A DNA stretch of 64,000 nucleotides from a virus (taxonomy: Duplodnaviria > Caudoviricetes). Below the pieces are notes generated by a model. It saw nothing but the letters and a program-made list of their open reading frames with translations. It searched no databases and had not been told where the DNA came from. This document shows positions 13,832-39,861 of this stretch, in pieces. The stretch is from the IMG/VR virus record IMGVR_UViG_3300033463_006479, positions 32,001 to 96,000 of that record; one strand, 5' to 3'. Made by a program: the position numbers and the translations under genes. Numbering within the stretch: the stretch's first letter is position 1; each line of letters begins with the position of its first letter.

Positions 13832-14516
13832 TAACTTGCTATGAAAATATACAAATCCGAAAATTATATAAGCGAAAAACTCGGCATTAAGCCAATATCA
13901 AAAACAAGACTTGGCAAAATTCTGTATGTTGATACGTATAAAAGCGCAGCCGATATGCGTAGCAATCTTCAAACTGGCGATATTGTTGTGATTGGAAATG
14001 AAGATGAAAACATACAAGGGACATACATATCATACAATGATATAAAAAGCGGCGTGTATGATAGTTACTTTCATTTCATAAAAAGAATTTCTGAACTGCC
14101 AAACAGCGAAATTGCTGAAGGCTTGTTTGTTTTTTGGGAGAAAGAGGGGTTTTATACAAAAATTTCAGTACAAGAATTTGATGCTGACCTTAAAAAATAT
14201 AATACATTCAGAATTATGTATGTTTATAGGTTGCCTCTGCTTTTACAAAAACCATTACCAGAAGAGTTCTTTAAAACCAACCATATTCCGAAAGCAAAAC
14301 TGATTTGGAGTTACAACGGAAAATCGGTTAATGAGAAACTTGACATACAGCCAGTTACGAGGGAACGTCTTGGCGACATAAAAGACGGAATGTATGTTAT
14401 AACTGGATGTGTTGTTGAGTGGGATAACAACAGAAGTTGATAAACCTATTCAAAAGTAGTCAAAAATGTTCAAAAGTAACCCGTATAAATATATAAAGTT
14501 CGTGATATTTATTATT

Positions 14517-14620
14517 AGAATGTTGGTGGCACGGCATTCTGAATCAATAGAGATATATTAGAGGTCTTAACCTTGTTGACTCGTGCCACATTAAGTCGCA
14601 AAGTTATCACCTCTTTTTTT
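14517..14620 (+). ncRNA. Predicted two-hairpin kissing-loop RNA leader upstream of tnpB
   Basis: Loop GTGGCACG (14526-33) is complementary to loop CGTGCCAC (14582-89); covaries with the copy at 38479-38585. Confidence 0.65.
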
Positions 14621-14628
14621 ATTGGAAT

Positions 14629-16266
14629 ATGGTCATCGAGAGCAAATACACGAAAACCTTCAAGTCAAACGACTTAACCCGTCAGAAATATGACGAGTTG
14701 TATGCGTTTGCACTTATGCTACGTGACCATAAAAACCTTGTTTCCGAAAATGTGAACTCAAACCTTGAAAAGTACCTTGAATATTCCAAACTTGACTTCT
14801 TGAAGGAGATGAGGGCAAGATACAAGGATGTCATTCCAAGTTCGTTTTATTATGAGTTGTATTCACAAGTCTTTGCTTGCTACCAGAATAAGTTTGAAGC
14901 AATCCGCAAGCATCTTGACTTTGAAGTTGTAAGATTTGTCGGTTTTGACTTCTACAAGCGTGACACCAAGAAGAACAAGAAAGGAGACTTGAAGAAGGTT
15001 GTGACAGAGAAGAACAAAACACCTCTGTCAATTTGTCTGACCTACCTTGCGAGATATGGAAACGAGAACACACTTGAATACATAGCCAAGCAGTTAGAGA
15101 CCTGCGATGACAAGAAACGTGACTTCTACAACAATATCATCCGTTGCTGTGACAAGTTCGGTTTTGAACGTCTGCTTGGACTTGCTTTGCGGAAACGTAA
15201 CAGAATCATCAAGCGTTATTCAGAGCATCCGATAGGGTTCAAATCGCTTTCATTTGGCGGTCGTTGCAGGAAAACGAGAATCATTGACTACAACAAGAAG
15301 TTCGGTTCGGTCATCAACTCCTTTGTCAGTCTGTCGGGAATCGGGAGGAAGTCGTTTGACATTCCAGTGAAGTTCAACAAGGACTGGCACGGAAGTATGA
15401 AGGACTACCGCAAATCCAACCCCGACTACGAGTATGTCCTTACGTTTAACGAGAAACGACATCAAGTGAACATCAACTTGTGCAAGGACGGTCAGAGATA
15501 CATCCCAGAAGCAGGAGACAACGTGGTCGGCATTGACGTGAACTGTAAACACAATCTTTTCAGTCTGTCAAACGATACAAGTTATGATTATAACCGCAAG
15601 TTAGTCAATGACTTCTGCAAACTCTCGTTGGAGGTTGACGAACTGAAGAAAGACAAGAACTATGTTGTAGGAAAAAGAAAAAAGCGGAAACTTGACACCT
15701 TGAAGATGAAGATGCTGAAATCAGAGCAGCAACTCATATCAAGGATGTGCAAAGAACTTATGGCTGACGGAGTGAACCACATTGTTATGGAAGACCTTGA
15801 CAACGGATTCGGAAGGTGCTATGTCAAGGACAAGGGCAACGAGGATATAAACTACAACCGAAAGGTGAAGTTCCTTGGATTGAGTTCACTGAAAGATGAG
15901 GTTGAACACATTGCAAGGAAGTACGGCATCGCTTTGTCAACCGTGCAAGCGAGTTACACAAGCAAGATGTGCCCGATTTGCGGTTGCATTGCAGACGAGA
16001 ACCGACCTAACCAAGAGACATTTGAATGCGTTGAATGCGGACATAAGGACAATGCCGACCACAACGCATCGGTCAATATAAAGAACAGAGTGACCGTAAC
16101 CGTGTTGCGGGAGCAACTCTTAAAACGACTTGGCAACGGCGCATACGAACCTCGCAAATTAAAGCGAGAGAAGGTGAAGTATGTGCTGCTGTCGTTCCGA
16201 AGAGACTTGCAGAAAGCAAGTGGTGAACGTGGTGAAAGTGATATGACTACTTTTGACTATGTTTAG
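14629..16266 (+). CDS. tnpB: Large TnpB-family RNA-guided nuclease (545 aa)
   Basis: RuvC motifs VVGIDVN, IVMEDL, NADHNASVNI; Zn ribbon YTSKMCPICG..FECVECG. Confidence 0.9.
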   Translation: MVIESKYTKTFKSNDLTRQKYDELYAFALMLRDHKNLVSENVNSNLEKYLEYSKLDFLKEMRARYKDVIPSSFYYELYSQVFACYQNKFEAIRKHLDFEVVRFVGFDFYKRDTKKNKKGDLKKVVTEKNKTPLSICLTYLARYGNENTLEYIAKQLETCDDKKRDFYNNIIRCCDKFGFERLLGLALRKRNRIIKRYSEHPIGFKSLSFGGRCRKTRIIDYNKKFGSVINSFVSLSGIGRKSFDIPVKFNKDWHGSMKDYRKSNPDYEYVLTFNEKRHQVNINLCKDGQRYIPEAGDNVVGIDVNCKHNLFSLSNDTSYDYNRKLVNDFCKLSLEVDELKKDKNYVVGKRKKRKLDTLKMKMLKSEQQLISRMCKELMADGVNHIVMEDLDNGFGRCYVKDKGNEDINYNRKVKFLGLSSLKDEVEHIARKYGIALSTVQASYTSKMCPICGCIADENRPNQETFECVECGHKDNADHNASVNIKNRVTVTVLREQLLKRLGNGAYEPRKLKREKVKYVLLSFRRDLQKASGERGESDMTTFDYV

Positions 16267-16436
16267 TTCTTCGGATTTAGAGATGCTACAGAAAAAGAAT
16301 TTGATGATTTCTTTGATGGAAAACGCACACTAACAAATGTGTGCTATTATGTTGATATAACCAAAGGCGGTATGCGTGAAAATTTAAGCAGTGAAATGAA
16401 GCAACTGCGTAAGAAATACAATAGCATTTAATAAGC

Positions 16437-16469
16437 AAAAACGCCATTCGCTCTACAAGTGAATGGCGT
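16437..16469. terminator. Hairpin terminator between convergent genes
   Basis: ACGCCATTCGCT-ctaca-AGTGAATGGCGT with a flanking A tract. Confidence 0.65.
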
Positions 16470-16496
16470 GTATAATATCACTATATTCCACACTCT

Positions 16497-17824: not shown

Positions 17825-18715
17825 ATGGAAATACTGAAAACAGAACAATACATAAACGAGAAATTGGATATTCTTCCAGTCACAAAGGACAGACTTTCCA
17901 AAATGAAAGAATTGGTTTCTGTTGATGAAAAAACAAGGCGATTTATAGAAGAAAACAACTTGGTTTGGAATCCAGTCACAATGAGTTATGATTGTAAAGA
18001 TGATGTTCAAGTATCAGAGGATATAGTAATTAACGGAAAACTCAAAATAATATTCGGGAAAGTCAGTGGGGATTTTGATTGCCGTGATAATAATCTGACC
18101 ACCCTTGAGTGTGTGCCGAAGGAAGTGGGCGGAAGTTTTTATTGCAGTTATAATAATCTGACTACGCTTGAATGCGCACCGAAAGAAGTTGGTGGGTATT
18201 TTGATTGCAGTAACAATAATCTGACTACACTTGAAGGTGTACCGAATGTGGTTGGTAAGAATTTTGATTGTGGTAGAAATAATCTGACCACCCTTAACGG
18301 AGCACCACAAGAAGTTGGCGGGAGTTTTTATTGCAGTGGAAATGAACTGACTACACTTGAAGGAGCACCGCAGGAAGTGGGTGGTTTTTATTGCAGTTGT
18401 AATAGTCTGACTTCCCTTGAAGGTGCACCGAAAAAGGTTGGTGGGTGTTTTTATTGCAGTTTTAATTATCTGACCACGCTTGAAGGAGCACCAAAGGAAA
18501 TTGGCGAAGATTTTAAATGCAATGATAATGAACTGATTTCCCTTGAAGGCGCACCACAGAGAGTCGGCGGTGGTTTTGATTGTAGTGGCAATAAACTGAT
18601 TTCCCTTGAAGGCGCACCACAGAAAGTCGGTAGGGATTTTAAATGCAGTGATAACCCAAATCTTGTTTTATCAGAAGAAAAACCAAGCTGGGTGAAGGGG
18701 AATTTTATAAGATAA
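17825..18715 (+). CDS. Tagged LRR protein
   Basis: Tag + 22-aa repeats. Confidence 0.9.
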   Translation: MEILKTEQYINEKLDILPVTKDRLSKMKELVSVDEKTRRFIEENNLVWNPVTMSYDCKDDVQVSEDIVINGKLKIIFGKVSGDFDCRDNNLTTLECVPKEVGGSFYCSYNNLTTLECAPKEVGGYFDCSNNNLTTLEGVPNVVGKNFDCGRNNLTTLNGAPQEVGGSFYCSGNELTTLEGAPQEVGGFYCSCNSLTSLEGAPKKVGGCFYCSFNYLTTLEGAPKEIGEDFKCNDNELISLEGAPQRVGGGFDCSGNKLISLEGAPQKVGRDFKCSDNPNLVLSEEKPSWVKGNFIR

Positions 18716-18724
18716 ATCAAAATT

Positions 18725-19240
18725 ATGGAAATACTTAAATCAGAGCAATACATAAGCGAGAAACTGACCATACAGCCAGTAACAAAGGACAGACTTTCCA
18801 AAATGAAAGAAGAACCTTCTGCTGATGAAAAAGCAAGACAATTCATAGAAGACAACAACTTGGTTTGGAATCCCAAAACAATGTGTTATGACTGTGAAGG
18901 TAATATTAAAGTATCAGATGATATAGTCGCTGGAGGAAAACTTAAAATAAGATTTGGAAAAGTTAGTGGGTATTTTTATTGCAGTGATAATAATCTTACC
19001 ACACTTGAAGGAGCACCGAATAAAGTGGTCGGAAGTTTTTATTGCAGTAACAACAAACTAACCACTCTTGATGGCGCACCGCAATATGTTGAAGGAAGTT
19101 TTACTTGTAATGACAATAATTTGGTATCTCTTGAAGGCGCACCGAATGAAGTGTGTGGAAATTTTTGTTGCTATAATAATCCGAATCTGGTTTTGCCAAA
19201 AGAGAAACCGAGCTGGGTGAAAGGGGAAATAATACGTTAA
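18725..19240 (+). CDS. Tagged LRR protein
   Basis: Tag + 22-aa repeats. Confidence 0.9.
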   Translation: MEILKSEQYISEKLTIQPVTKDRLSKMKEEPSADEKARQFIEDNNLVWNPKTMCYDCEGNIKVSDDIVAGGKLKIRFGKVSGYFYCSDNNLTTLEGAPNKVVGSFYCSNNKLTTLDGAPQYVEGSFTCNDNNLVSLEGAPNEVCGNFCCYNNPNLVLPKEKPSWVKGEIIR

Positions 19241-19243
19241 ACT

Positions 19244-19885
19244 ATGAGAATATTAAAAACCGAACAATATATAAACGAGAAACTGCTAATCAAACCAGTC
19301 ACAAAGAATATGCTTGCCAAAATGAAAGAAGAGCCTTCTGCTGATGAAAAAGTAAGGCAATTTATAGAAGAAAACAACTTGGTTTGGAATCCAAAAACAA
19401 TGAGCTATGACTGTGTGGGTGATGTTAGAGTATCAGAGGATATAGTAATTGACGGAAAACTCAAAATAAGATTCGGGAAAGTCAATGGATATTTTGATTG
19501 CAGTAACAATAATCTGACCACGCTTGAAGGCTCACCGAATGAAGTGGTCGGAAGTTTTTATTGTGATAATAATAATCTTACCACTCTTGATGGCGCACCG
19601 AATAAAGTGGGCAGAGATTTTGATTGCAGTTATGACAAACTGACCTCGCTTGAAGGCGCACCGAATAAAGTGGGCAGGGATTTTGATTGCAGTTCTAATA
19701 ATCTGACTACGCTTGAAGGCGCACCGAATAAAGTGGGCAGGGATTTTTATTGCGGTTATAATGAACTTACCTCGCTTGAAGGCGCACCACAAGAAGTCGG
19801 TGGGGATTTTAATTGCATTTATAATCCAAACCTTATTTTACCAGAAGGGAAACCGAGCTGGCTGAAAGGGGAAATAATAAATTAA
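19244..19885 (+). CDS. Tagged LRR protein
   Basis: Tag + 22-aa repeats. Confidence 0.9.
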   Translation: MRILKTEQYINEKLLIKPVTKNMLAKMKEEPSADEKVRQFIEENNLVWNPKTMSYDCVGDVRVSEDIVIDGKLKIRFGKVNGYFDCSNNNLTTLEGSPNEVVGSFYCDNNNLTTLDGAPNKVGRDFDCSYDKLTSLEGAPNKVGRDFDCSSNNLTTLEGAPNKVGRDFYCGYNELTSLEGAPQEVGGDFNCIYNPNLILPEGKPSWLKGEIIN

Positions 19886-19888
19886 GTG

Positions 19889-20653
19889 ATGAAAATACTG
19901 GATTCAAACGAATACATTGGCGAAAAACTGGTAATCAAACCAGTTACAAAGGATATGCTTTCCGATTATAAAAATCTATCTGTTGACGAAACCACAAGTC
20001 AATTCATAGAAGAAAACAATCTTATATGGAATCCAATCACAAAAAGTTATGACTGTGGTGGTAATGTTATCGTATCAGAAGATATGGTCATTGACGGAAA
20101 ACTGAAAATAAAATTCGGAAAGGTCGGCGGGGAGTTTCTTTGCTTTAACAAACAACTGACCACGCTTGAAAACTCACCGAATGAAGTCGGAGGTGAGTTT
20201 GATTGCAGTAACAATGGACTGACTTCACTTGAAGGCGCACCGAAAAAAATTGGTGGACATTTTGATTGCAGTTTTAATAATCTGACCACACTTGAGGGAG
20301 CACCGCAGGAAGTCAGCGGAGGTTTTTATTTATATGATAATCATTTGACCTCGCTTGAAGGAGCACCACAGAAAGTTGGCGGAGATTTTAGTTGCAGTTC
20401 TAATAATCTTACAACGCTTGAAGGCTCACCGCAGAAAGTGAGTGGAGATTTCAATTGCAGTGGTAATGAACTGACCACCCTTGAAGGCGCACCGAAGGAA
20501 GTTGGTGGAAATTTTAATTGCAGTTATAATGAATTGACCACCCTTGATGGCGCACCACAGAAAGTTGGTGGAAATTTTGTTTGCAGTGATAACCCAAACC
20601 TTGTTTTACCAAAAAGAAAACCGAGCTGGTTGAAAGGAAAAATAATCAGTTAA
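19889..20653 (+). CDS. Tagged LRR protein
   Basis: Tag + 22-aa repeats. Confidence 0.9.
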   Translation: MKILDSNEYIGEKLVIKPVTKDMLSDYKNLSVDETTSQFIEENNLIWNPITKSYDCGGNVIVSEDMVIDGKLKIKFGKVGGEFLCFNKQLTTLENSPNEVGGEFDCSNNGLTSLEGAPKKIGGHFDCSFNNLTTLEGAPQEVSGGFYLYDNHLTSLEGAPQKVGGDFSCSSNNLTTLEGSPQKVSGDFNCSGNELTTLEGAPKEVGGNFNCSYNELTTLDGAPQKVGGNFVCSDNPNLVLPKRKPSWLKGKIIS

Positions 20654-20656
20654 GAT

Positions 20657-21736
20657 ATGAAAATATTGGATTCAAACGAATATATAAACGAGAAACTGGT
20701 AATCAAACCAGTAACAAAGGATAGGCTTTCCGATTATAAAAAGCCATATGCTGATGAGGAGACAATTCGATTCATAAAAGACAACAATCTTATATGGAAT
20801 CCATTATCAAAAAGTTATGACTGCGAAGGTTATGTTAATGTATCAGATGACATAGTAATTAATGGAAAACTCAAAATAAGATTCGGAAAGGTCTGTTTGG
20901 ATTTTAATTGCACTGATAATGAACTGACTACTCTTGAAGGAGCACCAAATGAAGTAGGAGGGGATTTTCTTTGCTTTCACAATGAACTGACCGCCCTTGA
21001 AGGCGCACCGAAGAAAGTCGGCGGACATTTTAATTGCAATAGTAATTATCTGACAACACTTGAAGGAGCACCAAATAATGTTGGTGGGAATTTTTATTGC
21101 AGTAACAATCAACTGACTACACTTGAAGGTGCACCGAATAAAGTTGATGGAAATTTTGATTGCAGTAAAAATAAACTGACCACCCTTGAAGGAGCACCGC
21201 AGGAAGTATGTGGAAGTTTTTATTGCGGTAACAATCAACTGACTACACTTGAAGGCGCACCAAATAAAGTTGATGGCGATTTTGATTGTTATAATAATAA
21301 TCTGACCTATCTTAAAGGCGCACCGCAGGAAGTATGTGGAAGTTTTTATTGCAGCAAAAATAAACTGACCTCGCTTGAAGGTGCACTGAAGAAAGTTGGT
21401 GGAGGCTTTAATTGCAGTAGTAATAATCTGGCCACCCTTGAAGGAGCACCGAAGAAAGTTGGTGGAAATTTTAGTTGCCGTAATAATAATCTTACCACCC
21501 TTGAAGGAGCACCGCAGGAAGTTGGTGGAAATTTTAGTTGCCGTAACAATAATCTGACCACGCTTGAAGGAACACCAAAGAAAGTTTGTGGGGATTTTTA
21601 TTGCAGTCATAATAATCTTACCACACTTGAAGGCGCACCAAATGAAGTCGGTGGTGATTTTGATTGCAGCAATAATCCAAACCTTGTTTTACCAAAAGAA
21701 AAACCGAACTGGCTGAAAGGAAAAATAATCAGTTAA
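20657..21736 (+). CDS. Tagged LRR protein
   Basis: Tag + about 12 repeats. Confidence 0.9.
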   Translation: MKILDSNEYINEKLVIKPVTKDRLSDYKKPYADEETIRFIKDNNLIWNPLSKSYDCEGYVNVSDDIVINGKLKIRFGKVCLDFNCTDNELTTLEGAPNEVGGDFLCFHNELTALEGAPKKVGGHFNCNSNYLTTLEGAPNNVGGNFYCSNNQLTTLEGAPNKVDGNFDCSKNKLTTLEGAPQEVCGSFYCGNNQLTTLEGAPNKVDGDFDCYNNNLTYLKGAPQEVCGSFYCSKNKLTSLEGALKKVGGGFNCSSNNLATLEGAPKKVGGNFSCRNNNLTTLEGAPQEVGGNFSCRNNNLTTLEGTPKKVCGDFYCSHNNLTTLEGAPNEVGGDFDCSNNPNLVLPKEKPNWLKGKIIS

Positions 21737-21739
21737 GAT

Positions 21740-22828
21740 ATGAAAATACTGGATTCAAACGAATACATAAACGAGAAACTGGACATTAAGCCAGTTACAA
21801 ATGACATACTTTCCAAATTTAGGGAAGAACCTTATATTGATAAAAAGACAAGAAAATTCATAGAAGTCAACAATCTTATATGGAATCCAGTCACAATGAG
21901 TTATGACTGTGATGGCGATGTTGATGTGTGGGAAGGCATAGTTACAGATGGAAAACTCAAAATAAGATTTGGGGATGTCTGTGGTGATTTTGATTGCAGT
22001 TATAATGAACTGACCACCCTTGAAGGCGCACCGAAAAAAGTAGGTGGTGATTTTGATTGTGATATTAATAATCTGACCACACTTGAAGGAGCACCAAATG
22101 TGGTGGGTGGACATTTTATTTGCAATGGCAATAAACTGACTTCACTTAAAGGAGCACCGAATGACGTTGGCGGAGATTTTAATTGCAGTGACAATAGTAT
22201 AACCACGCTTGAAGGTGCACCGAATAAGGTGGGCTGGGATTTTGATTGCAGTATTAATAAACTGACCACCCTTGAAGGAGCACCGAATGAAGTTGGTGGC
22301 GATTTTAATTGCAGTAGTAATAGTCTGACTACCCTTAAAGGCGCACCGAAGAAAGTTGATGGTGATTTTGATTGCAGTGGTAATAATCTGACCGCCCTTG
22401 AAGGTGCATCGAATGAGGTCGGTGGGTATTTTTATTGCTGTTATAATAAACTAACAACCCTTGAAGGTGCACCGAAGAAAGTGAGTGGAAATTTTTATTG
22501 TTATAACAATAATCTGACCACACTTGAAGGAGCACCAAATGAAGTAGGCGGGGATTTTAATTGCTCTTTTAATAATCTGACTGCCATTGAAGGAGCACCG
22601 AAGAAAGTCGGTGGGGATTTTAATTGCAGTAACAATGAACTGACCACCCTTGAAGGAGCACCGACTGTGGTTGGTAAAGGTTTTAATTGCAGTCATAATG
22701 AACTGACCACTCTTGAAGGAGCACCACAGAAAGTCGTTGGCGATTTTTATTGCAGACATAATCCAAACCTTGTTTTACCAGAAGAAAAACCGATTTGGAT
22801 TGAAGGAAAATATATAACTGCTTTATGA
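21740..22828 (+). CDS. Tagged LRR protein
   Basis: Tag + about 12 repeats. Confidence 0.9.
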   Translation: MKILDSNEYINEKLDIKPVTNDILSKFREEPYIDKKTRKFIEVNNLIWNPVTMSYDCDGDVDVWEGIVTDGKLKIRFGDVCGDFDCSYNELTTLEGAPKKVGGDFDCDINNLTTLEGAPNVVGGHFICNGNKLTSLKGAPNDVGGDFNCSDNSITTLEGAPNKVGWDFDCSINKLTTLEGAPNEVGGDFNCSSNSLTTLKGAPKKVDGDFDCSGNNLTALEGASNEVGGYFYCCYNKLTTLEGAPKKVSGNFYCYNNNLTTLEGAPNEVGGDFNCSFNNLTAIEGAPKKVGGDFNCSNNELTTLEGAPTVVGKGFNCSHNELTTLEGAPQKVVGDFYCRHNPNLVLPEEKPIWIEGKYITAL

Positions 22829-23592
22829 AAATACTTGATTCAAACGAATATATAAACGAGAAACTGGACATCCAGCCAGTCACAAAGGATAGGTTTGCCA
22901 AATTTAAGGAAGAACCTTATATTGATGAAAAGACAAGAAAATTCATAGAAGACAACAATCTTATATGGAATCCAGTTACAATGAGCTATGACTGTGGAGG
23001 TGGTGTTAAAGCATCAGAGGATATAGTTGCTGACGGAAAACTTAAAATAAGATTCGGGAAGGTTGATGGGGATTTTAATTGCAGTGATAATCAACTGACA
23101 ACCCTTGATGGAGCACCGAAGGAAGTGGGTAGAAATTTTTATTGCAGAAGAAATAAACTGACAACCCTTGAAGGAGCACCGAAGGAAGTGAGCGGAAGTT
23201 TTTATTGCAGTCGTAATAATCTGACCACCCTTAAAGACGCACCACAAAAAGTGGGTGGAGATTTTGATTGCATTGGTAATAAACTAACCACCCTTGAAGG
23301 AGCACCGCAGGAAGTTGGTGGGTATTTTAGTTGCAGTAATAATAATCTTACAACGCTTGAAGGAGCACCTCAAGAAATAGGTAAGGATTTTGATTGCAGT
23401 TTTAATAATCTTACCACCCTTAAAGGAACACCGCAGAAAGTCGGTGGGTATTTTAATTGCAGTGACACCAATCTGACCACCCTTGAGTACGCACCGAATG
23501 AAGTTGACGGTTATTTTTATTGTTATAATAACTCAAGTCTTGTTTTGCCAGAGGAGAAACCGAGCTGGCTGAAAGGGAGAATAATAAGTTAA
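22825..23592 (+). CDS. Tagged LRR protein
   Basis: Tag + 22-aa repeats. Confidence 0.9.
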   Translation: MKILDSNEYINEKLDIQPVTKDRFAKFKEEPYIDEKTRKFIEDNNLIWNPVTMSYDCGGGVKASEDIVADGKLKIRFGKVDGDFNCSDNQLTTLDGAPKEVGRNFYCRRNKLTTLEGAPKEVSGSFYCSRNNLTTLKDAPQKVGGDFDCIGNKLTTLEGAPQEVGGYFSCSNNNLTTLEGAPQEIGKDFDCSFNNLTTLKGTPQKVGGYFNCSDTNLTTLEYAPNEVDGYFYCYNNSSLVLPEEKPSWLKGRIIS

Positions 23593-23595
23593 ATT

Positions 23596-24300
23596 ATGAA
23601 AACACTGAAAACTGAACAATACATAAGCGAGAAACTGACCATACAGCCAGTCACAAAGGACAGACTTTCCAAAATGAAAGAAGAGCCGTCTGTTGATGAA
23701 AAAGCAAGGCTATACATAGAAGAAAACAACTTGGTTTGGAATTCAAAAACAATAAGCTATGATTGTTATGGAGATGTTGATGTGTCGGAAGACATAGTTA
23801 CAGATGGAAAACTCAAAATAAGATTTGGAAAGATTGGTGGGTATTTTGATTGCAATAACAATAGACTGACTACGCTTGAAGGAGTACCGAAAGAAGTTGG
23901 TGGGTATTTTGATTGCAGTTATAACAATCTGACCACACTTGAAGGAGCACCGAATGTTGTTGGTGAAGATTTTTATTGTGATAACAATAGACTGACCACT
24001 CTTGAAGGCGCACCGAATGAAGTGAGTGGTGATTTTTTTTGCGGTGGCAATAAACTGGCCACACTTGAAGGAGCACCGAAGGAAGTTGGCGGTTGTTTCA
24101 GTTGTAGTAATAATAATCTTACAACGCTTGAAGGTGCACCGAAAAAGGTCGGCGGGTATTTTAATTGCAGTGACAATAATCTGACTACACTTGAAGGAGC
24201 ACCACAGAAAGTTGGTGGGGATTTTAATTGCATTAATAACCCAAACCTTGTTTTACCAGAAGAAAAACCAATCTGGGTGAAAGGTGAAATATATAAATAA
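23596..24300 (+). CDS. Tagged LRR protein
   Basis: Tag + 22-aa repeats. Confidence 0.9.
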   Translation: MKTLKTEQYISEKLTIQPVTKDRLSKMKEEPSVDEKARLYIEENNLVWNSKTISYDCYGDVDVSEDIVTDGKLKIRFGKIGGYFDCNNNRLTTLEGVPKEVGGYFDCSYNNLTTLEGAPNVVGEDFYCDNNRLTTLEGAPNEVSGDFFCGGNKLATLEGAPKEVGGCFSCSNNNLTTLEGAPKKVGGYFNCSDNNLTTLEGAPQKVGGDFNCINNPNLVLPEEKPIWVKGEIYK

Positions 24301-24303
24301 TTT

Positions 24304-24882
24304 ATGAGAATACTGAAGTCAGACACATATATAAACGAGAAACTGGACATTAAGCCAGTCACAAAGGACAGACTTTCCAAATTTATGGAAAAACTGTATG
24401 TTGATGAAAACACAAGGAAATTTATAGAAAAGAATAATCTTAAATGGAATCCATTATTAAAAGGTTATGACTGTGGAGGTGATGTTAAAGTATCAGAGGA
24501 TATAGTCACTGACGGAAAACTGAAAATAAGATTTGGGAAAGTCGGTGGTAATTTTCATTGCGGTAGTAATAATCTGACCACGCTTGAAGGCGCACCGAAG
24601 GAAGTCGGTGGGTGTTTCAGTTGTAGTAATAATAATCTTACAACGCTTGAAGGAACACCGAAAAATGTCTGTGGGTATTTTAATTGCAGTGATAATAAAC
24701 TGACTTCACTTGAAGGAGCACCGCAGGAAGTCGGTGGGAATTTTTATTGCAGTGGTAATGAACTGACTACGCTTGAAGGCGCACCGAAGGAAGTCGGTGG
24801 GGATTTTATTTGCAGATATAACCAAAACCTTGTTTTACCAAAAGAAAAACCGAGCTGGCTGAAAGGGAATTTTATAAATTAA
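24304..24882 (+). CDS. Tagged LRR protein
   Basis: Tag + 22-aa repeats. Confidence 0.9.
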   Translation: MRILKSDTYINEKLDIKPVTKDRLSKFMEKLYVDENTRKFIEKNNLKWNPLLKGYDCGGDVKVSEDIVTDGKLKIRFGKVGGNFHCGSNNLTTLEGAPKEVGGCFSCSNNNLTTLEGTPKNVCGYFNCSDNKLTSLEGAPQEVGGNFYCSGNELTTLEGAPKEVGGDFICRYNQNLVLPKEKPSWLKGNFIN

Positions 24883-24891
24883 ATCAAAATT

Positions 24892-25659
24892 ATGGAAATA
24901 CTGAAAACCGAACAATATATAAACGAGAAACTGACCATACAGCCAGTAACAAAGGATAGACTTTCCAAATTTAGGGAAGAACCTTATATTGATGAAAAGA
25001 CAAGGCAATTCATAGAATACAACAACCTTAAATGGAATCCAGTTACAAAAAGTTATGATTGTGAAGGTGATGTTAAAGTATCAGAGGATATTGTTGCTGA
25101 CGGAAAACTGAAAATAAGATTCGGAAAAGTTAGCGGGATTTTTGATTGCAGTAACAATAAACTGACATCGCTTGAAGGAGCACCGAATGAAGTTGGTGGT
25201 AATTTTTATTGCGGTTATAATGAACTGACCACCCTTGATGGCGCACCGCAATATGTTGGTGTTGGTTTTCATTGTTATGGTAATAAACTGACTTCCCTTG
25301 AAGGCGCACCTCAAGAAATAGGTAAAGATTTTGATTGCGGTTATAATAATCTGACCACCCTTGAAGGAGCACCGAAGAAAGTTGGTGGTAATTTTGATTG
25401 CAGCAGTAATGTATTGACCACCCTTGAAGGCGCACCAAAATATGTTGGTGATAATTTTATTTGCAGTTATAATAAACTGACCACTCTTGAATGCGCACCG
25501 CAAGAAGTTGGTGTGGGTTTTTATTGCACTTCCAATAATCTGACCTCTCTTGAAGGTGCACCGAATAAAGTCGGTGGGTATTTTTATTGCAGTGATAATT
25601 CAAACCTTGTTTTACCAAAAGAAAAACCGAGCTGGGTGAAAGGAGAAATAATAAGTTAA
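24892..25659 (+). CDS. Tagged LRR protein
   Basis: Tag + 22-aa repeats. Confidence 0.9.
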   Translation: MEILKTEQYINEKLTIQPVTKDRLSKFREEPYIDEKTRQFIEYNNLKWNPVTKSYDCEGDVKVSEDIVADGKLKIRFGKVSGIFDCSNNKLTSLEGAPNEVGGNFYCGYNELTTLDGAPQYVGVGFHCYGNKLTSLEGAPQEIGKDFDCGYNNLTTLEGAPKKVGGNFDCSSNVLTTLEGAPKYVGDNFICSYNKLTTLECAPQEVGVGFYCTSNNLTSLEGAPNKVGGYFYCSDNSNLVLPKEKPSWVKGEIIS

Positions 25660-25662
25660 AAT

Positions 25663-26556: not shown

Positions 26557-26565
26557 ATCAAAATT

Positions 26566-27585: not shown

Positions 27586-27588
27586 ACT

Positions 27589-28101: not shown

Positions 28102-28104
28102 TTT

Positions 28105-29661: not shown

Positions 29662-30005
29662 CATATATTGTTGTTTGTGCTATTTCTTGAAAACATAATC
29701 AAGCATTTCTTTGCAAAAGTCATTCAGTACATTAAATACAGATGAAACAAATTTGACGGCAAATTTTTCAAAATCTCCGTGAATCAATTTTGAGTAATTT
29801 ACTTGAAAATAATCCATACCACCTTCATCGTTTTCAAGTTCACATTTAATTGGCATAAAGCCGAAATATTTTTTTGCGTTTTTTCTTGTAAAATCTGAAA
29901 GCAATGTAAGAAACGTATTTTCTATACGGAGCAACCTTTCGGTATTGGTGCTGATTACAATTCCGTATTCAAAAAATCTTTTTACTTCATTTTCTGTTAT
30001 TTCAT

Positions 30006-31323
30006 CGGAATTATCCCTTTTAGTCTTGTTAAACTTCAAGTTCAATAGTCGCTTCGTTGCTGTCCGTTTGTTCACCAGTTTTCTTGGGTTTTGCAAACGG
30101 TTGATACACAGCTCCACGACTGTACTCGACATTCCTTGCCGAGATATGTCTCTGCCATTCATCTGGCTCGTATGATTCATTATTCTTCGCTGCGTTGATG
30201 TCTCTGTCGTGATGAGCACCGCAGTTCGGGCAAGTCCAATATCTTACACCCAGATTTTTGACTTTCTTGTTTATGTAACCGCACTCGCTGCACATTTGGC
30301 TTGATGGATAATATCTGTCGACTTTCATCATAGTTTTGCCGTTCCATCTGCATTTGTATTCGAGTGTCTGGACAAACTGATGCCAGTTACATTCGGAGAT
30401 GGACTCTGCCAACTTATGATTCTTCATCATTCCTTTAATGTTGAGGTCTTCAACTTTTATCAAATCATAAGTTTTGACAAGTTCTGTGGTTATCTTGTGT
30501 ATGTAATCGGTTTTGATGTCCGTGATTTTCTGGTAGATTCGGTTGCATTTCAACACTTGGTTTTCGTATCTCTTGCTTCCGTGTATCTTTCTTGCCAGAC
30601 ATCTTTGATATTTCTTTAACTTTCTTTTATAATATCTAATTATACTACGTTTACTTGCGTATTTGAATCCCTTGCTTGTTATAATCAACTCCTTTATTCC
30701 GAGGTCAAGACCCACACGCTCATAGGTTTTACTGCTTGGCGTATAATCTTGCTTGACTGTTATCGCTATATAATATCTGCCAGCCTTGTTTTTTGAAATT
30801 GTGGCAAAGCAAATCTTGCCAGTGATTTCTTTGGAGACCACAATGTCTATTCCGCTTTTGAGTTTCGGAATATAAAGTTTATTATCCTTGATTCGGAACG
30901 TGTTTGGCTGTGAAATCCTAAACGACTGTTTGTTCTTTCTGTTCTTGAACTTCGGGTATTTGCTTCTGCGCTTGTAGAAATTGTCATACGCAGTGTGCAT
31001 ATTCCTCAAACTGCATTGCAAAGACTGCAAAGGAATATCATTCAAGAATTCGAATCCTTCAGTCTTGCGGAGTTTGGTCAGTTTAGATTGTTGAATGTTG
31101 TATGAATCGCTTGTCTTTGTTTCTTCGTATTGTTGTTTCTTCTCATTAAGGAAATGGTTGTACACAAGCCTGCAACACCCGAACACATTAGCAAGATAAA
31201 CTTGCTGCTCTCTGTTCGGATATATCCTAAACTTATATGTGTAAACTCTTTCCATCTAATTGAAATACTATACTCTATTTATACCAATTACATTCTTACA
31301 AGACTAAATGGGATAATTCCGTA
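30006..31323 (-). mobile_element. tnpB-only insertion element 2 with 24-bp TIRs (23/24)
   Basis: CGGAATTATCCCTTTTAGTCTTGT (30006-30029) and ACAAGACTAAATGGGATAATTCCG (31298-31321); internal TATAAATA on - strand at 31276-31283. Confidence 0.85.
30029..31255 (-). CDS. tnpB: TnpB (IS605/IS607 OrfB family) RNA-guided nuclease
   Basis: YKFRIYPN HTH, VGLDLG, VEDLN, PSSQMCSECG, CPNCG..HDRDINAA. Confidence 0.93.
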   Translation of the reverse strand: MERVYTYKFRIYPNREQQVYLANVFGCCRLVYNHFLNEKKQQYEETKTSDSYNIQQSKLTKLRKTEGFEFLNDIPLQSLQCSLRNMHTAYDNFYKRRSKYPKFKNRKNKQSFRISQPNTFRIKDNKLYIPKLKSGIDIVVSKEITGKICFATISKNKAGRYYIAITVKQDYTPSSKTYERVGLDLGIKELIITSKGFKYASKRSIIRYYKRKLKKYQRCLARKIHGSKRYENQVLKCNRIYQKITDIKTDYIHKITTELVKTYDLIKVEDLNIKGMMKNHKLAESISECNWHQFVQTLEYKCRWNGKTMMKVDRYYPSSQMCSECGYINKKVKNLGVRYWTCPNCGAHHDRDINAAKNNESYEPDEWQRHISARNVEYSRGAVYQPFAKPKKTGEQTDSNEATIELEV

Positions 31324-31374
31324 ATTTATTATTTTTAATGTTTGTCAATCTTCCTTTTGTTATTGGTTGGATTG

Positions 31375-31749
31375 TCATTTTTCACTAACGCATAAAGATT
31401 CGTTGAATATCTCATCTTCAATAAGCAAGTCATCATATCCTTGGTCTTCAAGTTCTTTGAGCAAATCAGCATATTGTTCCTTTGTAGCTGGGATTGTATC
31501 CTCTTGAACCCAGTCCCACCCGCAGGAACTATGCTGGCCAATATGTGAATAACACATAATAGTACCGTCATTGTTTTCTATATACGGAAACACAGCCACA
31601 ACCTCATCGTTATCTTCGTCATAGCGGAATGTAACAATGGTTTTACCAACAGTTTCCTTGTATTTGGCAAGTCTTGTTTTGGTGACGGGCTTTATGGACA
31701 ACCCTTCATCAAGTTTGTTGTATTCGTTGGATTTAAGAATTTTTGTCAT
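31375..31749 (-). CDS. Tagged hypothetical protein
   Basis: MTKILKSNEYNKLDEGLSIKPVTKTRL; VVAVFP..CYSHIGQHS; late promoter at 31779. Confidence 0.8.
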   Translation of the reverse strand: MTKILKSNEYNKLDEGLSIKPVTKTRLAKYKETVGKTIVTFRYDEDNDEVVAVFPYIENNDGTIMCYSHIGQHSSCGWDWVQEDTIPATKEQYADLLKELEDQGYDDLLIEDEIFNESLCVSEK

Positions 31750-34549: not shown

Positions 34550-35272
34550 TTATTTATACAAGTTGTTTTTCGGGTTTTTCTTTTTCTTGAATTTCGGCAT
34601 TTTGCTATTGTCTCTGGACATATATATATTTGCGAAATGCTCGCTGTTGTTCACTTTTCCAACATTCCAACCAGACAAGTCTTGGTCAAAAAACAACGCA
34701 CCTCTGAACATAGCTTCCATTGACAGCACATTGGAAACATCCCATTTGGAAATGTCTTGGTTAAAATTTCTGGCGGCAAAAAACATATATTTCATATTGC
34801 AAACATTTGACACATTCCATTTGGAAATGTCTTGGTCAAACAAACTTGTATTTGCAAACATCGCTTCCATATCTTTCACATTGGAAACGTCCCAGTTTGA
34901 AATATCATTATTGAAATTAGAACGACTGAATATAAATGACATATCTATTACATTTGACACATTCCATTTGGAAATGTCGCCGTTGAATTTGCAGTCAGCA
35001 AACATAAGCGACATACTCGTAACATTGGAAACATTCCAGTCCGATATGTCGCCATTGAACTGGTGCATATCATAGAACAGCTTGCTCATATCTGTTATAT
35101 AAGTAACACAGATGTCGTTGAGGTTGCATTCGTCTCCTTCGTTTGCAATCTTGGTTTTAATAATCTGTATGAGTTCATCCTTTGTTTTCGGATAATAACG
35201 GTAGTTCCGTTTCATACCAGACAGCCGTTCCTTTGACACTGGTCTTATGATAAGTCTGTTTGTGTTTTCCAT
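34550..35272 (-). CDS. DUF285 repeat protein with partial tag
   Basis: MENTNRLIIRPVSKERL; DUF285 repeats. Confidence 0.88.
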   Translation of the reverse strand: MENTNRLIIRPVSKERLSGMKRNYRYYPKTKDELIQIIKTKIANEGDECNLNDICVTYITDMSKLFYDMHQFNGDISDWNVSNVTSMSLMFADCKFNGDISKWNVSNVIDMSFIFSRSNFNNDISNWDVSNVKDMEAMFANTSLFDQDISKWNVSNVCNMKYMFFAARNFNQDISKWDVSNVLSMEAMFRGALFFDQDLSGWNVGKVNNSEHFANIYMSRDNSKMPKFKKKKNPKNNLYK

Positions 35273-35273
35273 A

Positions 35274-35978
35274 CTATTTCATCTTTGGTCTTTTCCATCC
35301 GTTGAAGTCAAAGGAAAGTGGAGATTTTTTGAATATGTCGGTTGTTGCGGCCTTTTCAAGATTCCATTTTGATATGTCTTGGTTGAAACTTGAGTTGTAG
35401 AACATTCTGCTGGCCATTTTTACATTTGACACATTCCATTGGGAAATGTCTCGGTTAAACATTGAATGTGAGAACATATAGTCCATATATTCAACATTGG
35501 AAACATCCCATCTTGACAGACTGCCGTTGAACTGCGCAACGGAGAACATATAGCCCATATCGGTTACGTTGGAAACATCCCAGTCCGATATATCCTTGTT
35601 GAAAGCGGAATGGCAGAACATAGAACGCATATTTCTGACCTTTGACACATTCCATTGTGAGATGTCCCCGTTGAACTCGGACTCTTGGAACATATAGGAC
35701 ATATCTTTCACATTGCTGACATCCCATTGTGAAATGTCGCCGTCAAACATATGCGTTTTGTTTATCTGGTTGAACAGCCTTGACATATTTTTAATGCGAG
35801 AAACGTCTATGTCGTTGAGGTCGCAATGCACGCCCTCGTTCTCTATGCGTTCCGCAATTATCTCAATCAGTTCGTTTTCCCATCTTGGAAAATACTTGTA
35901 TTTCGATACGCCATTTGATTGAACTGGCTGTATGTTTAATTTCTCTGCTATAAAGTCTTTTAATTTAAGTATTATCAT
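35274..35978 (-). CDS. Tagged DUF285 repeat protein
   Basis: FIAEKLNIQPV; DUF285 repeats. Confidence 0.9.
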   Translation of the reverse strand: MIILKLKDFIAEKLNIQPVQSNGVSKYKYFPRWENELIEIIAERIENEGVHCDLNDIDVSRIKNMSRLFNQINKTHMFDGDISQWDVSNVKDMSYMFQESEFNGDISQWNVSKVRNMRSMFCHSAFNKDISDWDVSNVTDMGYMFSVAQFNGSLSRWDVSNVEYMDYMFSHSMFNRDISQWNVSNVKMASRMFYNSSFNQDISKWNLEKAATTDIFKKSPLSFDFNGWKRPKMK

Positions 35979-35981
35979 AGT

Positions 35982-36764
35982 CTATTTGAATAATGGTTGT
36001 TTTTCTGGGTGATTGACAAGTGGAGACTCGTTGAACATATTGATATGTGTTTTTACGCTTCTGACATCCCACCCAGACAAGTCTTGGTCAAATTTATGTG
36101 TCATATTAAACATTTGCATCATATTCACAACACTACGGGTGTTCCATCCAGATATGTCGCTATTAAATTCTTCAGCACCATAGAACATAGATTCCATAGT
36201 TTGCACACTTGACACATTCCATTTGGAAAGATTGCCGTTAAATTCATAAGCATAACAGAACATACCCTTCATACTAATCACATTAGACACATCCCATTCC
36301 GATATGTCCCCGTTGAAACTGGATTCCGAAAACATACCTTCCATACATTTGACGTTGCTCACATTCCATCTGGAAATGTCGCCATTAAAAATGGATTGGC
36401 AAAACATATCGGTCATATCCTCAACATTTTTGACATTCCACATTGATATGTCGCCATTGAAGTCCGAACTTCTGAACATCATTTTCATATTGGTTACATT
36501 GCTGACATCCCATTCGGATATGTTGCCGTTGAAGTCGGAGGTGTAGAACAGTTCTTCCATATTGTCAATGTTGGAAACGTCTATGTCGTTCAAATCGCAT
36601 TCAGCCCCTTCTTTTTCAATTCTGTCTTGTATGATGGAATAAAGGTCTTCCCTTGATGTCGGATGATAATTATGAATACGCCGCATACCATAAAGCCTTG
36701 TCTTTGTGACTGGTTTTATGTTCAGTTTTTCGTTTATATATTTGTCGGACTTCAGTATTCTCAT
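35982..36764 (-). CDS. Tagged DUF285 repeat protein
   Basis: Tag + repeats. Confidence 0.9.
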   Translation of the reverse strand: MRILKSDKYINEKLNIKPVTKTRLYGMRRIHNYHPTSREDLYSIIQDRIEKEGAECDLNDIDVSNIDNMEELFYTSDFNGNISEWDVSNVTNMKMMFRSSDFNGDISMWNVKNVEDMTDMFCQSIFNGDISRWNVSNVKCMEGMFSESSFNGDISEWDVSNVISMKGMFCYAYEFNGNLSKWNVSSVQTMESMFYGAEEFNSDISGWNTRSVVNMMQMFNMTHKFDQDLSGWDVRSVKTHINMFNESPLVNHPEKQPLFK

Positions 36765-36767
36765 ATC

Positions 36768-37553
36768 CTATTTGAATATTGGTTGTTTTTCTGGCTGGTT
36801 TTCCAACGGGCAATCTTTGAACATATCCGTATATACCATAATGCTTTTGGTGTTCCATCCAGACAAGTCTTGGTCAAATGAAGATGCCTTTTCAAACATT
36901 TGCGTCATAGTTATGACATTTGACACATCCCATTTTGATATGTCACTGTTAAACTTTCTTGCCCCGTAGAACATATATGTCATAGTTTGCGACCTTGACA
37001 CATTCCATTTGGACAAATCCCCGTTGAACTTTTCGGCATAGCAGAACATACCAGTCATATCAAACACTTTTGACACATCCCATTTGGACAAGTCCCCGTT
37101 GAATTGTGATGTGTGGAACATTCCAGACATATATTTCACATTTGACACATTCCAATCGGATATGTCATTGTCAAACAAGGACAGCTTGAACATATCGGTC
37201 ATATTCTTCACTTTGCAGACATTCCATTTTGAAATGTCCCCTTTGAAAGATGAGCGGCTGAACATACATTCCATAGTCGTAACATTATGCACGTTCCATT
37301 GGGATATGTTTCCGTTGAAAGTTGATTCATAAAAAAGATGCGACATATCGTCAATGGCAGAAACATCTATATCGTTCAAATCGCATAAATCTCCTTCTGC
37401 TGCTATGCGGTCATCTATAATGCTTTTCAACTCAAACTTTGACTGCGGATAATACTTGTACTTATGCACACGCATACCAGCAAGCCTCGTTCTTGTAACT
37501 GGCTTGATGTTGAGTTTCTCGTTTATATATCGGTCGGCATTGAGTATTTTCAT
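36768..37553 (-). CDS. Tagged DUF285 repeat protein
   Basis: Tag + repeats. Confidence 0.9.
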   Translation of the reverse strand: MKILNADRYINEKLNIKPVTRTRLAGMRVHKYKYYPQSKFELKSIIDDRIAAEGDLCDLNDIDVSAIDDMSHLFYESTFNGNISQWNVHNVTTMECMFSRSSFKGDISKWNVCKVKNMTDMFKLSLFDNDISDWNVSNVKYMSGMFHTSQFNGDLSKWDVSKVFDMTGMFCYAEKFNGDLSKWNVSRSQTMTYMFYGARKFNSDISKWDVSNVITMTQMFEKASSFDQDLSGWNTKSIMVYTDMFKDCPLENQPEKQPIFK

Positions 37554-37559
37554 AATTTT

Positions 37560-38198
37560 CTAATATCTGAAATTTGGTTGCAGCTCTTCCTCATATTGCA
37601 TTGGGCAGTTTTTGAATATGTCGTGGCGATGCCACACATTTCCAACCGACCATCTGGATAGGTCGCCTTTAAATATTGAATCGCAAAACATATACGACAT
37701 TTTCGTAACATTGCTCACATTCCAGTTGGAAATGTCGCCGTTGAAATCCGAATTTTGGAACATATTCTCCATATTTAAAACTTTTCCGACATTCCATTTT
37801 GATATGTCGCCATCAAAGTATGAATTGTAAAACATATATGACATATTTGTAACATTGCCAACATTCCAGTTGGAAATGTCGCCGTTGAATTTTGAGCTTT
37901 GGAACATACCAGTCATATTTTTCGCATTTCTGACATTCCATTCAGATATGTTTCCATCAAAATCCTTTAATGTGGAAATGGAAAACAAATATGAGAAGTT
38001 CGTTATGCAAGAAACATCAATGTCGTTCAAGTTGCAAAAAAAGCCATATTCTTCAATGTGGTTTTCTATGCAAACAATCAGTTCGCCTTTTGTTTTTGGA
38101 TGGTGTTTGTGTGGACGCAGTTCGGCCAGCCTTGTTTTTGAAACTGGCTTGATGCCAAGTTTTTCGTTTATATATCGGTCGGCATTAAGTATTCCCAT
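37560..38198 (-). CDS. Tagged DUF285 repeat protein
   Basis: Tag + repeats. Confidence 0.9.
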   Translation of the reverse strand: MGILNADRYINEKLGIKPVSKTRLAELRPHKHHPKTKGELIVCIENHIEEYGFFCNLNDIDVSCITNFSYLFSISTLKDFDGNISEWNVRNAKNMTGMFQSSKFNGDISNWNVGNVTNMSYMFYNSYFDGDISKWNVGKVLNMENMFQNSDFNGDISNWNVSNVTKMSYMFCDSIFKGDLSRWSVGNVWHRHDIFKNCPMQYEEELQPNFRY

Positions 38199-38223
38199 AG
38201 ACTAATATATTGTTTATTCATTC

Positions 38224-38235
38224 TATTTATAAATA
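38224..38235. promoter_or_regulatory. Overlapping bidirectional late promoter (TATTTATAAATA)
   Basis: Lies between divergent tagged genes; same form as 8147. Confidence 0.7.
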
Positions 38236-38251
38236 TAGAAATTATTTTTGT

Positions 38252-38388
38252 ATGGAAATACTGAAATCAGAACAATATCTAAACAAGAAACTGAACATTA
38301 CTCCAGTAACAAAAACAAGGCTTGACGGATTTGCCAAACCTACTGTTGATGAACATACAAAAAAGTTTATAACAAGCAATGGGTTGGT
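38252..38388 (+). pseudogene. Truncated tagged LRR gene interrupted by tnpB element 3
   Basis: MEILKSEQYLNKKLNITPVTKTRL..VDEHTKKFITSNGLV breaks where paralogs read LVWNP. Confidence 0.75.
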
Positions 38389-39861
38389 AACAGTTTATTG
38401 AAAATCTAATGAAAACTACGAAAAACGTATAAAAACAAACCCGTATAAATATATTATAGTTTAATGCTATTTATATAATGAAACGAAAGTGGAGAGTCGT
38501 TTCAAAATAGAATAAGATATATACAGAGGTTTTATCCTTGTCGGTACTCTCCACATTACTACCACAAGTTTAATGCCTCTTTTTTATTGATATGTTGCGA
38601 GGAATCAAGGTAAGGTTATATCCGAACAAGGAACAGCAGGCAAGACTGAATCAAGTTCTTGGTTGTTACCGTTTTGTGTATAACAAGACGCTCGAACTCA
38701 AACGCAATGCTTATGATGAAGACAAAACAACTCTTGGATTAACTGACATTTCAAAATGGTTTCACGGAACATTATTGAAAGACGAGAACTACACTTGGTT
38801 GCAGGAGCAGAACACAAAGGTGATGAAGCAGTCAATCAGACAAATGCTTGACGCTTATTCAAAGTTTTTCAAACAACACAACGGATTTCCGAAGTTCAAA
38901 TCCAAGAAAGACAAGCAGTCAGCACTGTTTCCGTCAGAAGCGATTTCCAAACGCAACACGTTCAATGAAAGAAAAATAACGCTGACTCAAGACTTAAAGG
39001 ACATAAGATTCAGATGTTCGGACTTGTATTACAAGAGACTTCAAGACCACAAGGACAAGATAAGAAGTGCGACCGTTTCGAGAACCAAGAGCGGCAACTA
39101 CTTCTTATCCATCCTTGTTGACATCCCGCAGAATGAACTTATCAAGTTCAAGCATACCAAGCAATGCGTTGGCATTGACCTCGGAGTCAAGGATTTTGTA
39201 ATCACAAGTGACGGTGAGGTCTTTGAAAACAAACACTTTTTCAAGAAGCAAGAAAGAAAAGTCAAAAGATTACAGAGGCAGCAGTCAAGAAAACAGAAAG
39301 GTTCGCACAACCAAGAGAAACAACGTGTCAGAATCGCAAAGGCGTTTGAAAGACTGACCAATCAGAAAGACGCTTACATCCATTCGGTTGTAAATGCTTT
39401 GCTATCCTTGTATGACTTGGTTTGTATGGAGGACTTGAATGTTCAAGGAATGCTGAAGAACCACAAACTTGCAAAGGCAATCCAAGAAGTTGGTTTCTAC
39501 AAGTTCAAGCAGATTTTACTTGACAAGGCAAATGTAAATGACAAGCAAGTCGTGTTGGTTGACCGTTTCTATCCGAGCAGTAAGACCTGCCACACGTGTG
39601 GTTACATCAAGAAAGACTTGACTTTGAGCGACCGTGAATGGGTCTGCCCTATTTGTGGTGAACACCACGACAGAGATGTGAATGCAGCGATTAACATCTT
39701 GTGTGAAGGTTTAAGAATAATAGGTGTCCGTAGCACCGAATTTACGCTTGCGGACTGCCCAACTATGGATGACCGTCTGGCAACAGACCTAAAAAGTAGT
39801 GGCAGGTTGAAACAAGAAAGAAGGACTAATAATTCCAGTTTTATTAGATTTTTCTATACGG
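38389..39861 (+). mobile_element. tnpB-only insertion element 3 with imperfect TIRs
   Basis: Left CAGTTTATTGAAAATCTAATGAAAACT vs reverse complement of right end CCGTATAGAAAAATCTAATAAAACT; internal TATAAATA at 38444. Confidence 0.7.
38479..38585 (+). ncRNA. Predicted kissing-loop RNA leader upstream of tnpB
   Basis: Loop GTGGAGAG (38489-96) is complementary to loop CTCTCCAC (38547-54); second hairpin ends in a U tract. Confidence 0.65.

Follow-up and report, generated by a model that had tools for sequence, protein, structure and literature searches.

The 64,000-nucleotide (nt) window analyzed here, bases 32001-96000 of the 192,463-bp IMG/VR viral contig IMGVR_UViG_3300033463_006479, contains three elements that each carry a tnpB gene and lie within members of a large family of paralogous "tagged" genes (Table 1). 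CheckV places the completeness of the contig at about 70%. Its sequence is present in bovine and goat gut metagenomes, and the 600-amino-acid (aa) open reading frame (ORF) at 10367-12169 has as its syntenic counterpart in a related phage a Gp23-type major capsid gene; the source is therefore taken to be a rumen jumbo phage. All three elements, as a preliminary description of this DNA had reported, sit in tagged genes. At least 36% of the window is taken up by tagged ORFs, however, with dozens of paralogues, so it is unsurprising that insertions survive in them.

Table 1. Coordinates of the three tnpB elements, their parts, and the interrupted host genes (positions within the window)
Feature	Position	Strand	Remarks
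Element 1, IS607-family, tnpB-only	14421-16274	+	begins GGGATAAC, finishes TTCTTCGG; the GG core leaves each end ambiguous by 2 nt
tnpB of element 1, 545 aa	14629-16266	+	Pfam PF07282, 1.3e-16; RuvC motifs visible when aligned to chain 9nzp
omegaRNA-like scaffold, element 1	16095-16274	+	finishes at the right end; presumed guide is the flank from 16275
TATAAATA in element 1	14484-14491	+	kept in close tnpB-only relatives L056, L057, L059
Structured leader, element 1	14492-14628	+	from promoter motif to tnpB start; ends in a stem and U-run
Host gene 1, 5' remnant (tagged)	13841-14422	+	intact 322 aa in related phage (P0002)
Host gene 1, 3' remnant	16275-16431	+	aligns to last 52 codons of the P0002 gene
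Element 2, tnpB cassette with IS1595-type inverted ends	30006-31321	-	CGGAATTATCCC...; 24-nt repeat, 23/24
tnpB of element 2, 408 aa, ISDra2 type	30029-31255	-	three Pfam domains; E = 3.4e-75 to ISDra2 TnpB; D-E-D kept
TATAAATA in element 2	31276-31283	-	3/3 relatives, 28 nt before the start codon
Host gene 2, 5' remnant	31322-31749	-	intact 326 aa in related phage; 1-nt loss in the A-run 31378-31382
Host gene 2, 3' remnant	29680-30005	-	aligns to P0007 C-terminus; DNA identity only 61-82%
Element 3, IS607-family, tnpB-only	38388-39861	+	TAACAG ... CTATACGG
tnpB of element 3, 433 aa	38592-39893	+	Pfam; reading frame continues 32 nt beyond the right end into the flank
TATAAATA in element 3	38444-38451	+	12/35 relatives
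Host gene 3, 5' remnant	38254-38387	+	homologue in related phage 300 aa

All three ORFs are named TnpB by Pfam and keep the D-E-D motifs of RuvC, and searches for transposase families find none inside the elements, which bears out the earlier report of three divergent tnpB genes without a transposase. The whole contig yields seven TnpB matches: three of family A (about 410 aa each, element 2 among them), two of family C (about 545 aa; element 1 and a copy in a tRNA cluster), one of family B (element 3), and a 94-aa fragment. Many rumen jumbo phages carry such cassettes, several copies per genome and at different sites.

The limits of element 1 are set by comparison with its relatives. The two family-C copies of this genome share 17 nt on the left and 8-9 nt on the right beyond the boundaries first proposed, and close relatives of element 1 all start GGGATA. 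Across other jumbo phages, over 20 independent insertions share the right end TTCTTCGG (three end TTCTTCGA), followed by an A and then by divergence. DNA matches in four other phage genomes are limited to window positions of about 14419-16275, and a contig with an empty allele breaks from the window at 14425 and 16275. Because its ends are common to family-C insertions and agree with the extent of the matches in the four phages, element 1 is assigned the coordinates in Table 1, with true ends 17 nt and 8 nt outside those of the preliminary description.

The right end of element 1 also terminates a conserved RNA fold. The last 150 nt of family C share 45 consensus pairs, 18 of them with compensatory changes, and the terminal stem uses TTCTTCGG. 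The folding energy of the 3' end has a z-score of -5.9 in element 1 and of -2.6 and -2.3 in the other two elements; that of element 3 shows modest structure only. The family-C fold is omegaRNA-like, looking as expected for a scaffold that would take the flank as its guide. The inverted repeat reported for element 1 is real (20/22 at 14441-14462 / 16244-16265), and this so-called terminal inverted repeat (TIR) is partly a hairpin of the 3' RNA. Compared with known IS607 TnpBs, the element 1 protein is long (545 aa), and its Pfam match is to the TNB domain only. The second family-C copy (L006, G000:C1:120660-123851) lies in a tRNA gene cluster with four tRNAs recognized by Rfam, beside an ORF whose GIY-YIG-like motif makes it a candidate homing endonuclease.

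Element 3 belongs to family B, for which 39 independent loci were found. Among the 31 right ends examined, most read ...ATACGG followed by T; left ends consist of GGGT, three variable bases, and (T/C)AAC(A/T)G. The element starts at 38388, or at 38381 if GGGTTGG is counted to the end in keeping with the family consensus GGGTnnn; the boundaries first given were nearly right, and the right end at 39861 stands. Its inverted repeat is imperfect, as reported (13/14 at 38401-38414 / 39839-39852). The element 3 TnpB is 37% identical to that of element 2 and keeps D-E-D.

The ends and relatives of elements 1 and 3 point to the IS607 family, which PMC13565253 describes, in its account of these elements, as lacking TIRs and duplications, having mostly GG termini, and inserting at or after GG. 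More than 50 right ends were examined in families C and B. Most have GG termini and left flanks ending in GG; the exceptions are a few that have GA in place of GG and some family-B loci with variant or no recognizable ends. No target duplications are seen in either family. Elements 1 and 3 further resemble IS607 in an insertion site 3' of GG, asymmetric ends with phased short repeats, a tnpB beside the right end, and structured RNA running to that end. The relatives supply the missing gene. At L065 and L081, a 201-207-aa ORF directly upstream of tnpB has a MerR-type helix-turn-helix (HTH) followed by a Resolvase domain (Pfam), and tblastn finds TnpA homologues upstream of tnpB at nine further family-C loci and six family-B loci. 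Only the HTH part is left at a further three family-C loci and one family-B locus; the ORF upstream of tnpB in L100 has no Pfam match. Because they lack the tnpA that their relatives have upstream of tnpB, elements 1 and 3 are classed by sequence as IS607-family derivatives, not complete members. They differ from IS607 elements in lacking tnpA, with a phage promoter motif and structured leader in its place, and in having a host deletion beside each copy. The phased TCAAAA/GAAAA repeats that first suggested IS607 were a sound lead for these two elements.

Element 2 instead has true inverted ends (30006-30029 / 31298-31321), matching the 23/24 first counted. Its exact ends, CGGAATTATCCC ... GGGATAATTCCG, are common to all three family-A copies of this genome and place the left boundary at 31321, not 31323. 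Phage G005 has a 3.4-kb element (L122 817-4210) between the same ends, there lengthened to a 65-nt inverted repeat; it encodes an IS1595-family ISXO2-like DDE transposase (PF12762, 4.9e-33), and a perfect 8-bp duplication, ATTTTAAA, lies on either side of it. That element also holds three passenger ORFs of 288, 158, and 229 aa, none with a Pfam match. When one position is left free, exact matches to the terminal 23 nt of element 2 occur in 13 stretches of phage DNA and 46 genome stretches from rumen and horse-gut Bacteroidales contigs. There the ends enclose DDE copies (65-97% identical), miniature inverted-repeat transposable elements (MITEs) of 251-669 bp, and cargo elements with a single gene; perfect AT-rich 8-bp duplications accompany many of them. 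Perfect 8-bp duplications likewise flank family-A tnpB copies in two other phages; the loci with family-A ends and such duplications are L009, L011, L122, L130, L152, L169, and L182. As the DDE gene is absent here and present between the same ends in G005 and the Bacteroidales contigs, element 2 is best classed as a non-autonomous derivative of an IS1595-type DDE transposon.

The resemblance of element 2 to IS1595 elements thus covers TIRs identical to those of an ISXO2-like DDE element, the AT-rich 8-bp duplications of its relatives, and the existence of MITEs and cargo versions. The differences are an RNA-guided nuclease as cargo, the missing transposase, the missing duplication, and a deletion of about 229 nt. 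IS200/IS605 elements have a Y1 HUH TnpA, subterminal hairpins, and no TIRs, whereas element 2 has TIRs and only its TnpB is of the ISDra2 type. Closer parallels are the DDE-associated and solo TnpBs (Altae-Tran et al., 2023, PMC10691335; PMC13565253), which likewise have symmetric inverted ends with the 3' end of tnpB near the transposon end, and for which mobilization in trans has been proposed. Where these two sources name DDE partners of TnpB, they give IS630, ISL2, and IS1031, and IS1595 is not among the names. An IS1595 copy in G002 has other ends. Flank exchange among the three family-A copies was rejected as the cause of their missing duplications, as their 8-mers show no cross-match. 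Other family-A ends in the genome (G000:C1:150451-150922, 24351, 182267) are those of a 470-bp MITE, which has a 7/8 duplication, an end standing alone, and the one end left to a truncated tnpB copy. The cargo elements with family-A ends at L126, L130, L148, L152, L162, and L169 hold single genes, and several of their N-termini faintly recall the phage tag (MTHIKRIDEM, MKIKTSEEFI).

One phage genome accordingly carries TnpB cassettes on two unrelated transposition systems. The preliminary description had united the three elements in a single mobile family with one junction geometry (a flanking T, then 2 nt and the TIR, with the right TIR ending in G before the flank). That rule fails against the true ends and the two transposon kinds: elements 1 and 3 are of the serine recombinase IS607 type and element 2 is of the DDE IS1595 type. 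The absence of target duplications holds for the three window copies and does not extend to the family of element 2, which makes 8-bp duplications elsewhere.

No transposase matching either system was detected in the 192-kb contig. Searches there gave no match to a Y1 transposase (PF01797), no tyrosine recombinase, no IS1595 DDE transposase (in element 2 or elsewhere in the contig), and no IS607-type TnpA, a serine recombinase with an N-terminal MerR-type HTH (in the elements or elsewhere in the contig). The preliminary description had proposed looking for a recombinase elsewhere in the genome. The sole serine recombinase of the contig (207-1169) carries its HTH_7 at the C-terminus, behind the resolvase domain, the wrong domain order for an IS607 TnpA.

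Empty alleles reveal what the insertions did to their host genes. The contig of a related rumen phage was walked via loci L087, L090, and L091, and a protein search with the 5' part of host gene 1 leads to the 322-aa P0002, 92% identical, on contigs up to 101 kb. At site 1, L090 matches the window to 14425 and resumes at 16275, with 227 nt (76 codons) in the element's place; the same empty allele is found on a contig of metagenome run X3. At site 2, the related phage has a single 326-aa ORF, P0007, and window positions 30003-31321 replace about 229 nt (76 codons). At site 3, window positions 38388-39872 replace about 756 nt of the 300-aa gene. In the intact allele, a GG immediately precedes each of the two breakpoints at site 1 (AATGG|GATGAAG and CAATGG|AATTTAG) and at site 3 (GGGTTGG|AATGG and GAAAGG|TTTGTT). 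The deletion at site 2 ends in two similar AT-rich 8-mers, the element 2 flanks ATAAATTA and ATGAAATA, which are alike at 6/8 positions, form no target duplication, and each fit their own host position about 229 nt apart. With GG at sites 1 and 3 and similar 8-mers at site 2, the deletion end points resemble target sites of the respective transposase. Other routes to the host alleles were unproductive: a GenBank phage collection yielded no match to the three regions by megablast or to host exon 1 by tblastn, host exons 1 and 2 recovered no relatives as queries for related loci in IMG/VR, and an exact search of IMG/VR with the right flank of element 1 found nothing. At the protein level, the 3' remnant of host gene 2 matched nothing but a 58-aa piece that is identical to it along the whole of the piece. 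Empty sites for the L057 and L059 insertions were sought in five phage genomes, where the elements alone matched.

These alleles bear directly on the proposal that the elements are removed from transcripts like introns, the inverted ends pairing to join the exons in the manner of IStrons and keeping the host genes functional. Its appeal is evident: removing the elements at the boundaries first given yields open frames at sites 1 and 2, and by the same coordinates a U precedes each element and the last base is G. The open frames do exist on paper, yet excision does not restore the host genes because the elements replaced host sequence. Compared with the intact genes of 322 and 326 aa, sites 1 and 2 each lack 76 codons. 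At site 1 the boundaries first given fall inside the element, and the 29 nt of element ends outside them happen to keep phase. At site 2 there is an additional frameshift, the single A lost from the run 31378-31382, which creates an "ATGA overlap start" and made the proposed frame seem natural. At site 3 the joined frame runs for three codons and then meets a stop. A group I core would not fit in the short leader, and Rfam gives no hit at gathering score; with E values up to 1 allowed, neither a group I intron nor any other intron is matched, and no omegaRNA family. Like IStrons, the elements lie within genes and would have an omegaRNA at the 3' end; unlike them, they have no detected intron core, and their ends do not restore the host gene. 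Frame restoration, on which intron-like removal rested, is refuted by empty alleles with other boundaries, the very outcome that the preliminary description had named as telling against it, and removal of this kind is highly improbable.

The cassettes also carry a phage sequence motif. TATAAATA occurs 22 times against 4.4 expected, a count reached in 0/100 shuffles. It precedes each tnpB on the coding strand and lies about 100 nt upstream of the Gp23-like capsid ORF, in agreement with the earlier report of a promoter motif inside each left end. Its absence from the tnpA-bearing family-C relatives and presence in tnpB-only ones fits adaptation to phage expression. Downstream of the motif, the leader of element 1 has homologues in element 3, the second family-C copy, and L056-L060, with compensatory changes at 10/25 predicted pairs. 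This leader of about 140 nt (window 14492-14628 and 38452-38591; L006, L056-L060) has covarying stems and places a terminator-like stem and U-run about 10 nt before the ATG. The conserved leader may act as an attenuator, or it may be a small RNA in its own right.

Taken together, the three elements are most probably non-autonomous transposon cassettes, consisting of TnpB and a guide-RNA scaffold only, in dispensable members of the tagged gene family. Elements 1 and 3 descend from IS607 elements by loss of the serine-recombinase tnpA; what they retain are GG-terminated ends, subterminal repeats in phase, and, reaching to the right boundary, a structured 3' RNA for which the flank would be the guide. 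Element 2 is an ISDra2-type tnpB carried between IS1595-type DDE inverted ends, and all three have acquired the TATAAATA promoter motif of the phage. Since the 192-kb contig has no matching transposase, movement, if any, is likely to depend on a transposase supplied in trans from related phages or the Bacteroidales host, in line with the interpretation of solo TnpBs within DDE or serine transposon ends as mobilized in trans (PMC10691335). The idea of a phage-adapted element mobilized in trans, part of the preliminary description, therefore persists as the most likely one for tnpB-only cassettes with a phage promoter motif, without the single family to which it was attached. The adjacent host deletions (227, about 229, and about 756 nt) would have been made after insertion by the transposase; such adjacent deletion, through intramolecular transposition, is the preferred and most economical cause.

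Several observations weigh against this interpretation. A transposase with no copy in 192 kb may be missing and not absent, the contig being about 70% complete. RAGATH-18, the known IS607 omegaRNA, is unmatched in Rfam at E up to 1, a further difference from IS607. A deletion lies beside three of three window elements, more than occasional adjacent deletion predicts, and the deletions at sites 1 and 2 are both 76 codons long. Host and left end share GGGAT (5 nt) at site 1 and GGGTTGG (7 nt) at site 3, which a simple GG-core model does not explain. For element 2, none of the three family-A copies of this genome has a duplication, and a DDE-bearing element with its ends is seen only once among phage contigs; the G005 transposase, searched in IMG/VR, has itself as sole match, and part of the contigs labeled as Bacteroidales metagenome-assembled genomes may be mis-binned phage. 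Lastly, identity to the empty-allele phage falls beside the elements, most on the low side of element 2, where it is 61-82% and then about 50% over 400 nt, compared with 90-100% elsewhere. This fall suggests recombination or co-conversion as well.

The fall in identity is also what RNA-guided homing would leave behind. In that scenario TnpB and its omegaRNA cut the element-free allele in co-infecting jumbo phages, repair copies the cassette together with its flanks and the deletion, and transposases play a minor part at present. An active-looking TnpB with an omegaRNA-like fold and the flank as would-be guide, a cassette-internal promoter motif of the capsid-gene kind, and the co-occurrence of element-bearing and element-free alleles in rumen samples are all compatible with it, and PMC13565253 includes a discussion of non-restorative TnpB homing between co-infecting phages. 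However, the many different insertion sites per family require transposition, the guide-matching sequence of the intact allele at site 1 is one base off the nearest GG, and reduced identity could reflect decay of a broken gene or ordinary mosaicism. Homing as the main route is thus possible, with the balance tilted against it. Somewhat more speculative is the idea that the cassettes, under a presumed late promoter of the capsid-gene type, might be RNA-guided homing or marker-exclusion devices directed against co-infecting relatives. If so, "replacement alleles" made of a cassette and its adjoining deletion would spread like a gene drive, and the IS1595-type ends would provide a second mode of movement with a borrowed transposase. 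The free-standing homing endonuclease genes of T4-like phages, known for intronless homing and marker exclusion, likewise stand under phage promoters and between mosaic flanks, and related phages differ in having or lacking the gene. The cassettes differ from them in that target recognition would be RNA-guided, in their true transposon ends and many sites, and in that homing is only proposed here.

The missing transposase can be read in yet another way, namely that the cassettes are decaying, inactive relics retained only through the dispensability of their host genes. The absence of duplications, the flanking deletions, and the truncated and solo ends elsewhere in the genome would agree with immobility. 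Set against these are three intact ORFs with their catalytic residues, RNA pairs kept through compensatory changes, a promoter motif kept across relatives, and several copies per genome at differing sites in many phages, which together make relics improbable.

The preference for mobile, non-autonomous cassettes corrects an attractive but wrong picture of intron-like, frame-restoring TnpB elements. One of the two transposition systems involved has IS1595-type ends, a partner left unnamed where PMC10691335 and PMC13565253 list such partners. The cassettes have taken up both the phage's own promoter motif and a structured leader. Their presence in many rumen jumbo phages, in several copies each, offers natural material on TnpB-driven homing or phage competition, and insertion is coupled to deletion at target-like sites in three of three cases.

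The tagged genes that surround the elements show features of their own. At least 31 ORFs (window 1-60527, e.g., 12252-14440, 18725-28605, and 34550-38198) have, some 13 residues after the start, an N-terminal motif of the type L-x-I-(K/Q/R)-P-(V/I)-(T/S)-K-x-R-L. In host genes 1 and 2 this motif recurs at an internal position, so that they encode two-module proteins. A tandem array of repeat-rich tagged genes is much longer here (17825-28605) than in the related phage (L090 12362-16221), so copy number differs between strains. The related phage has two extra genes, of 339 and 278 aa, at a separate indel beside element 3 (window 38193-38250 vs L091 3011-4943). The gene after element 3 has a run of 10 C (39935-39944) where the related phage has 7, a homopolymer length difference that is in frame.

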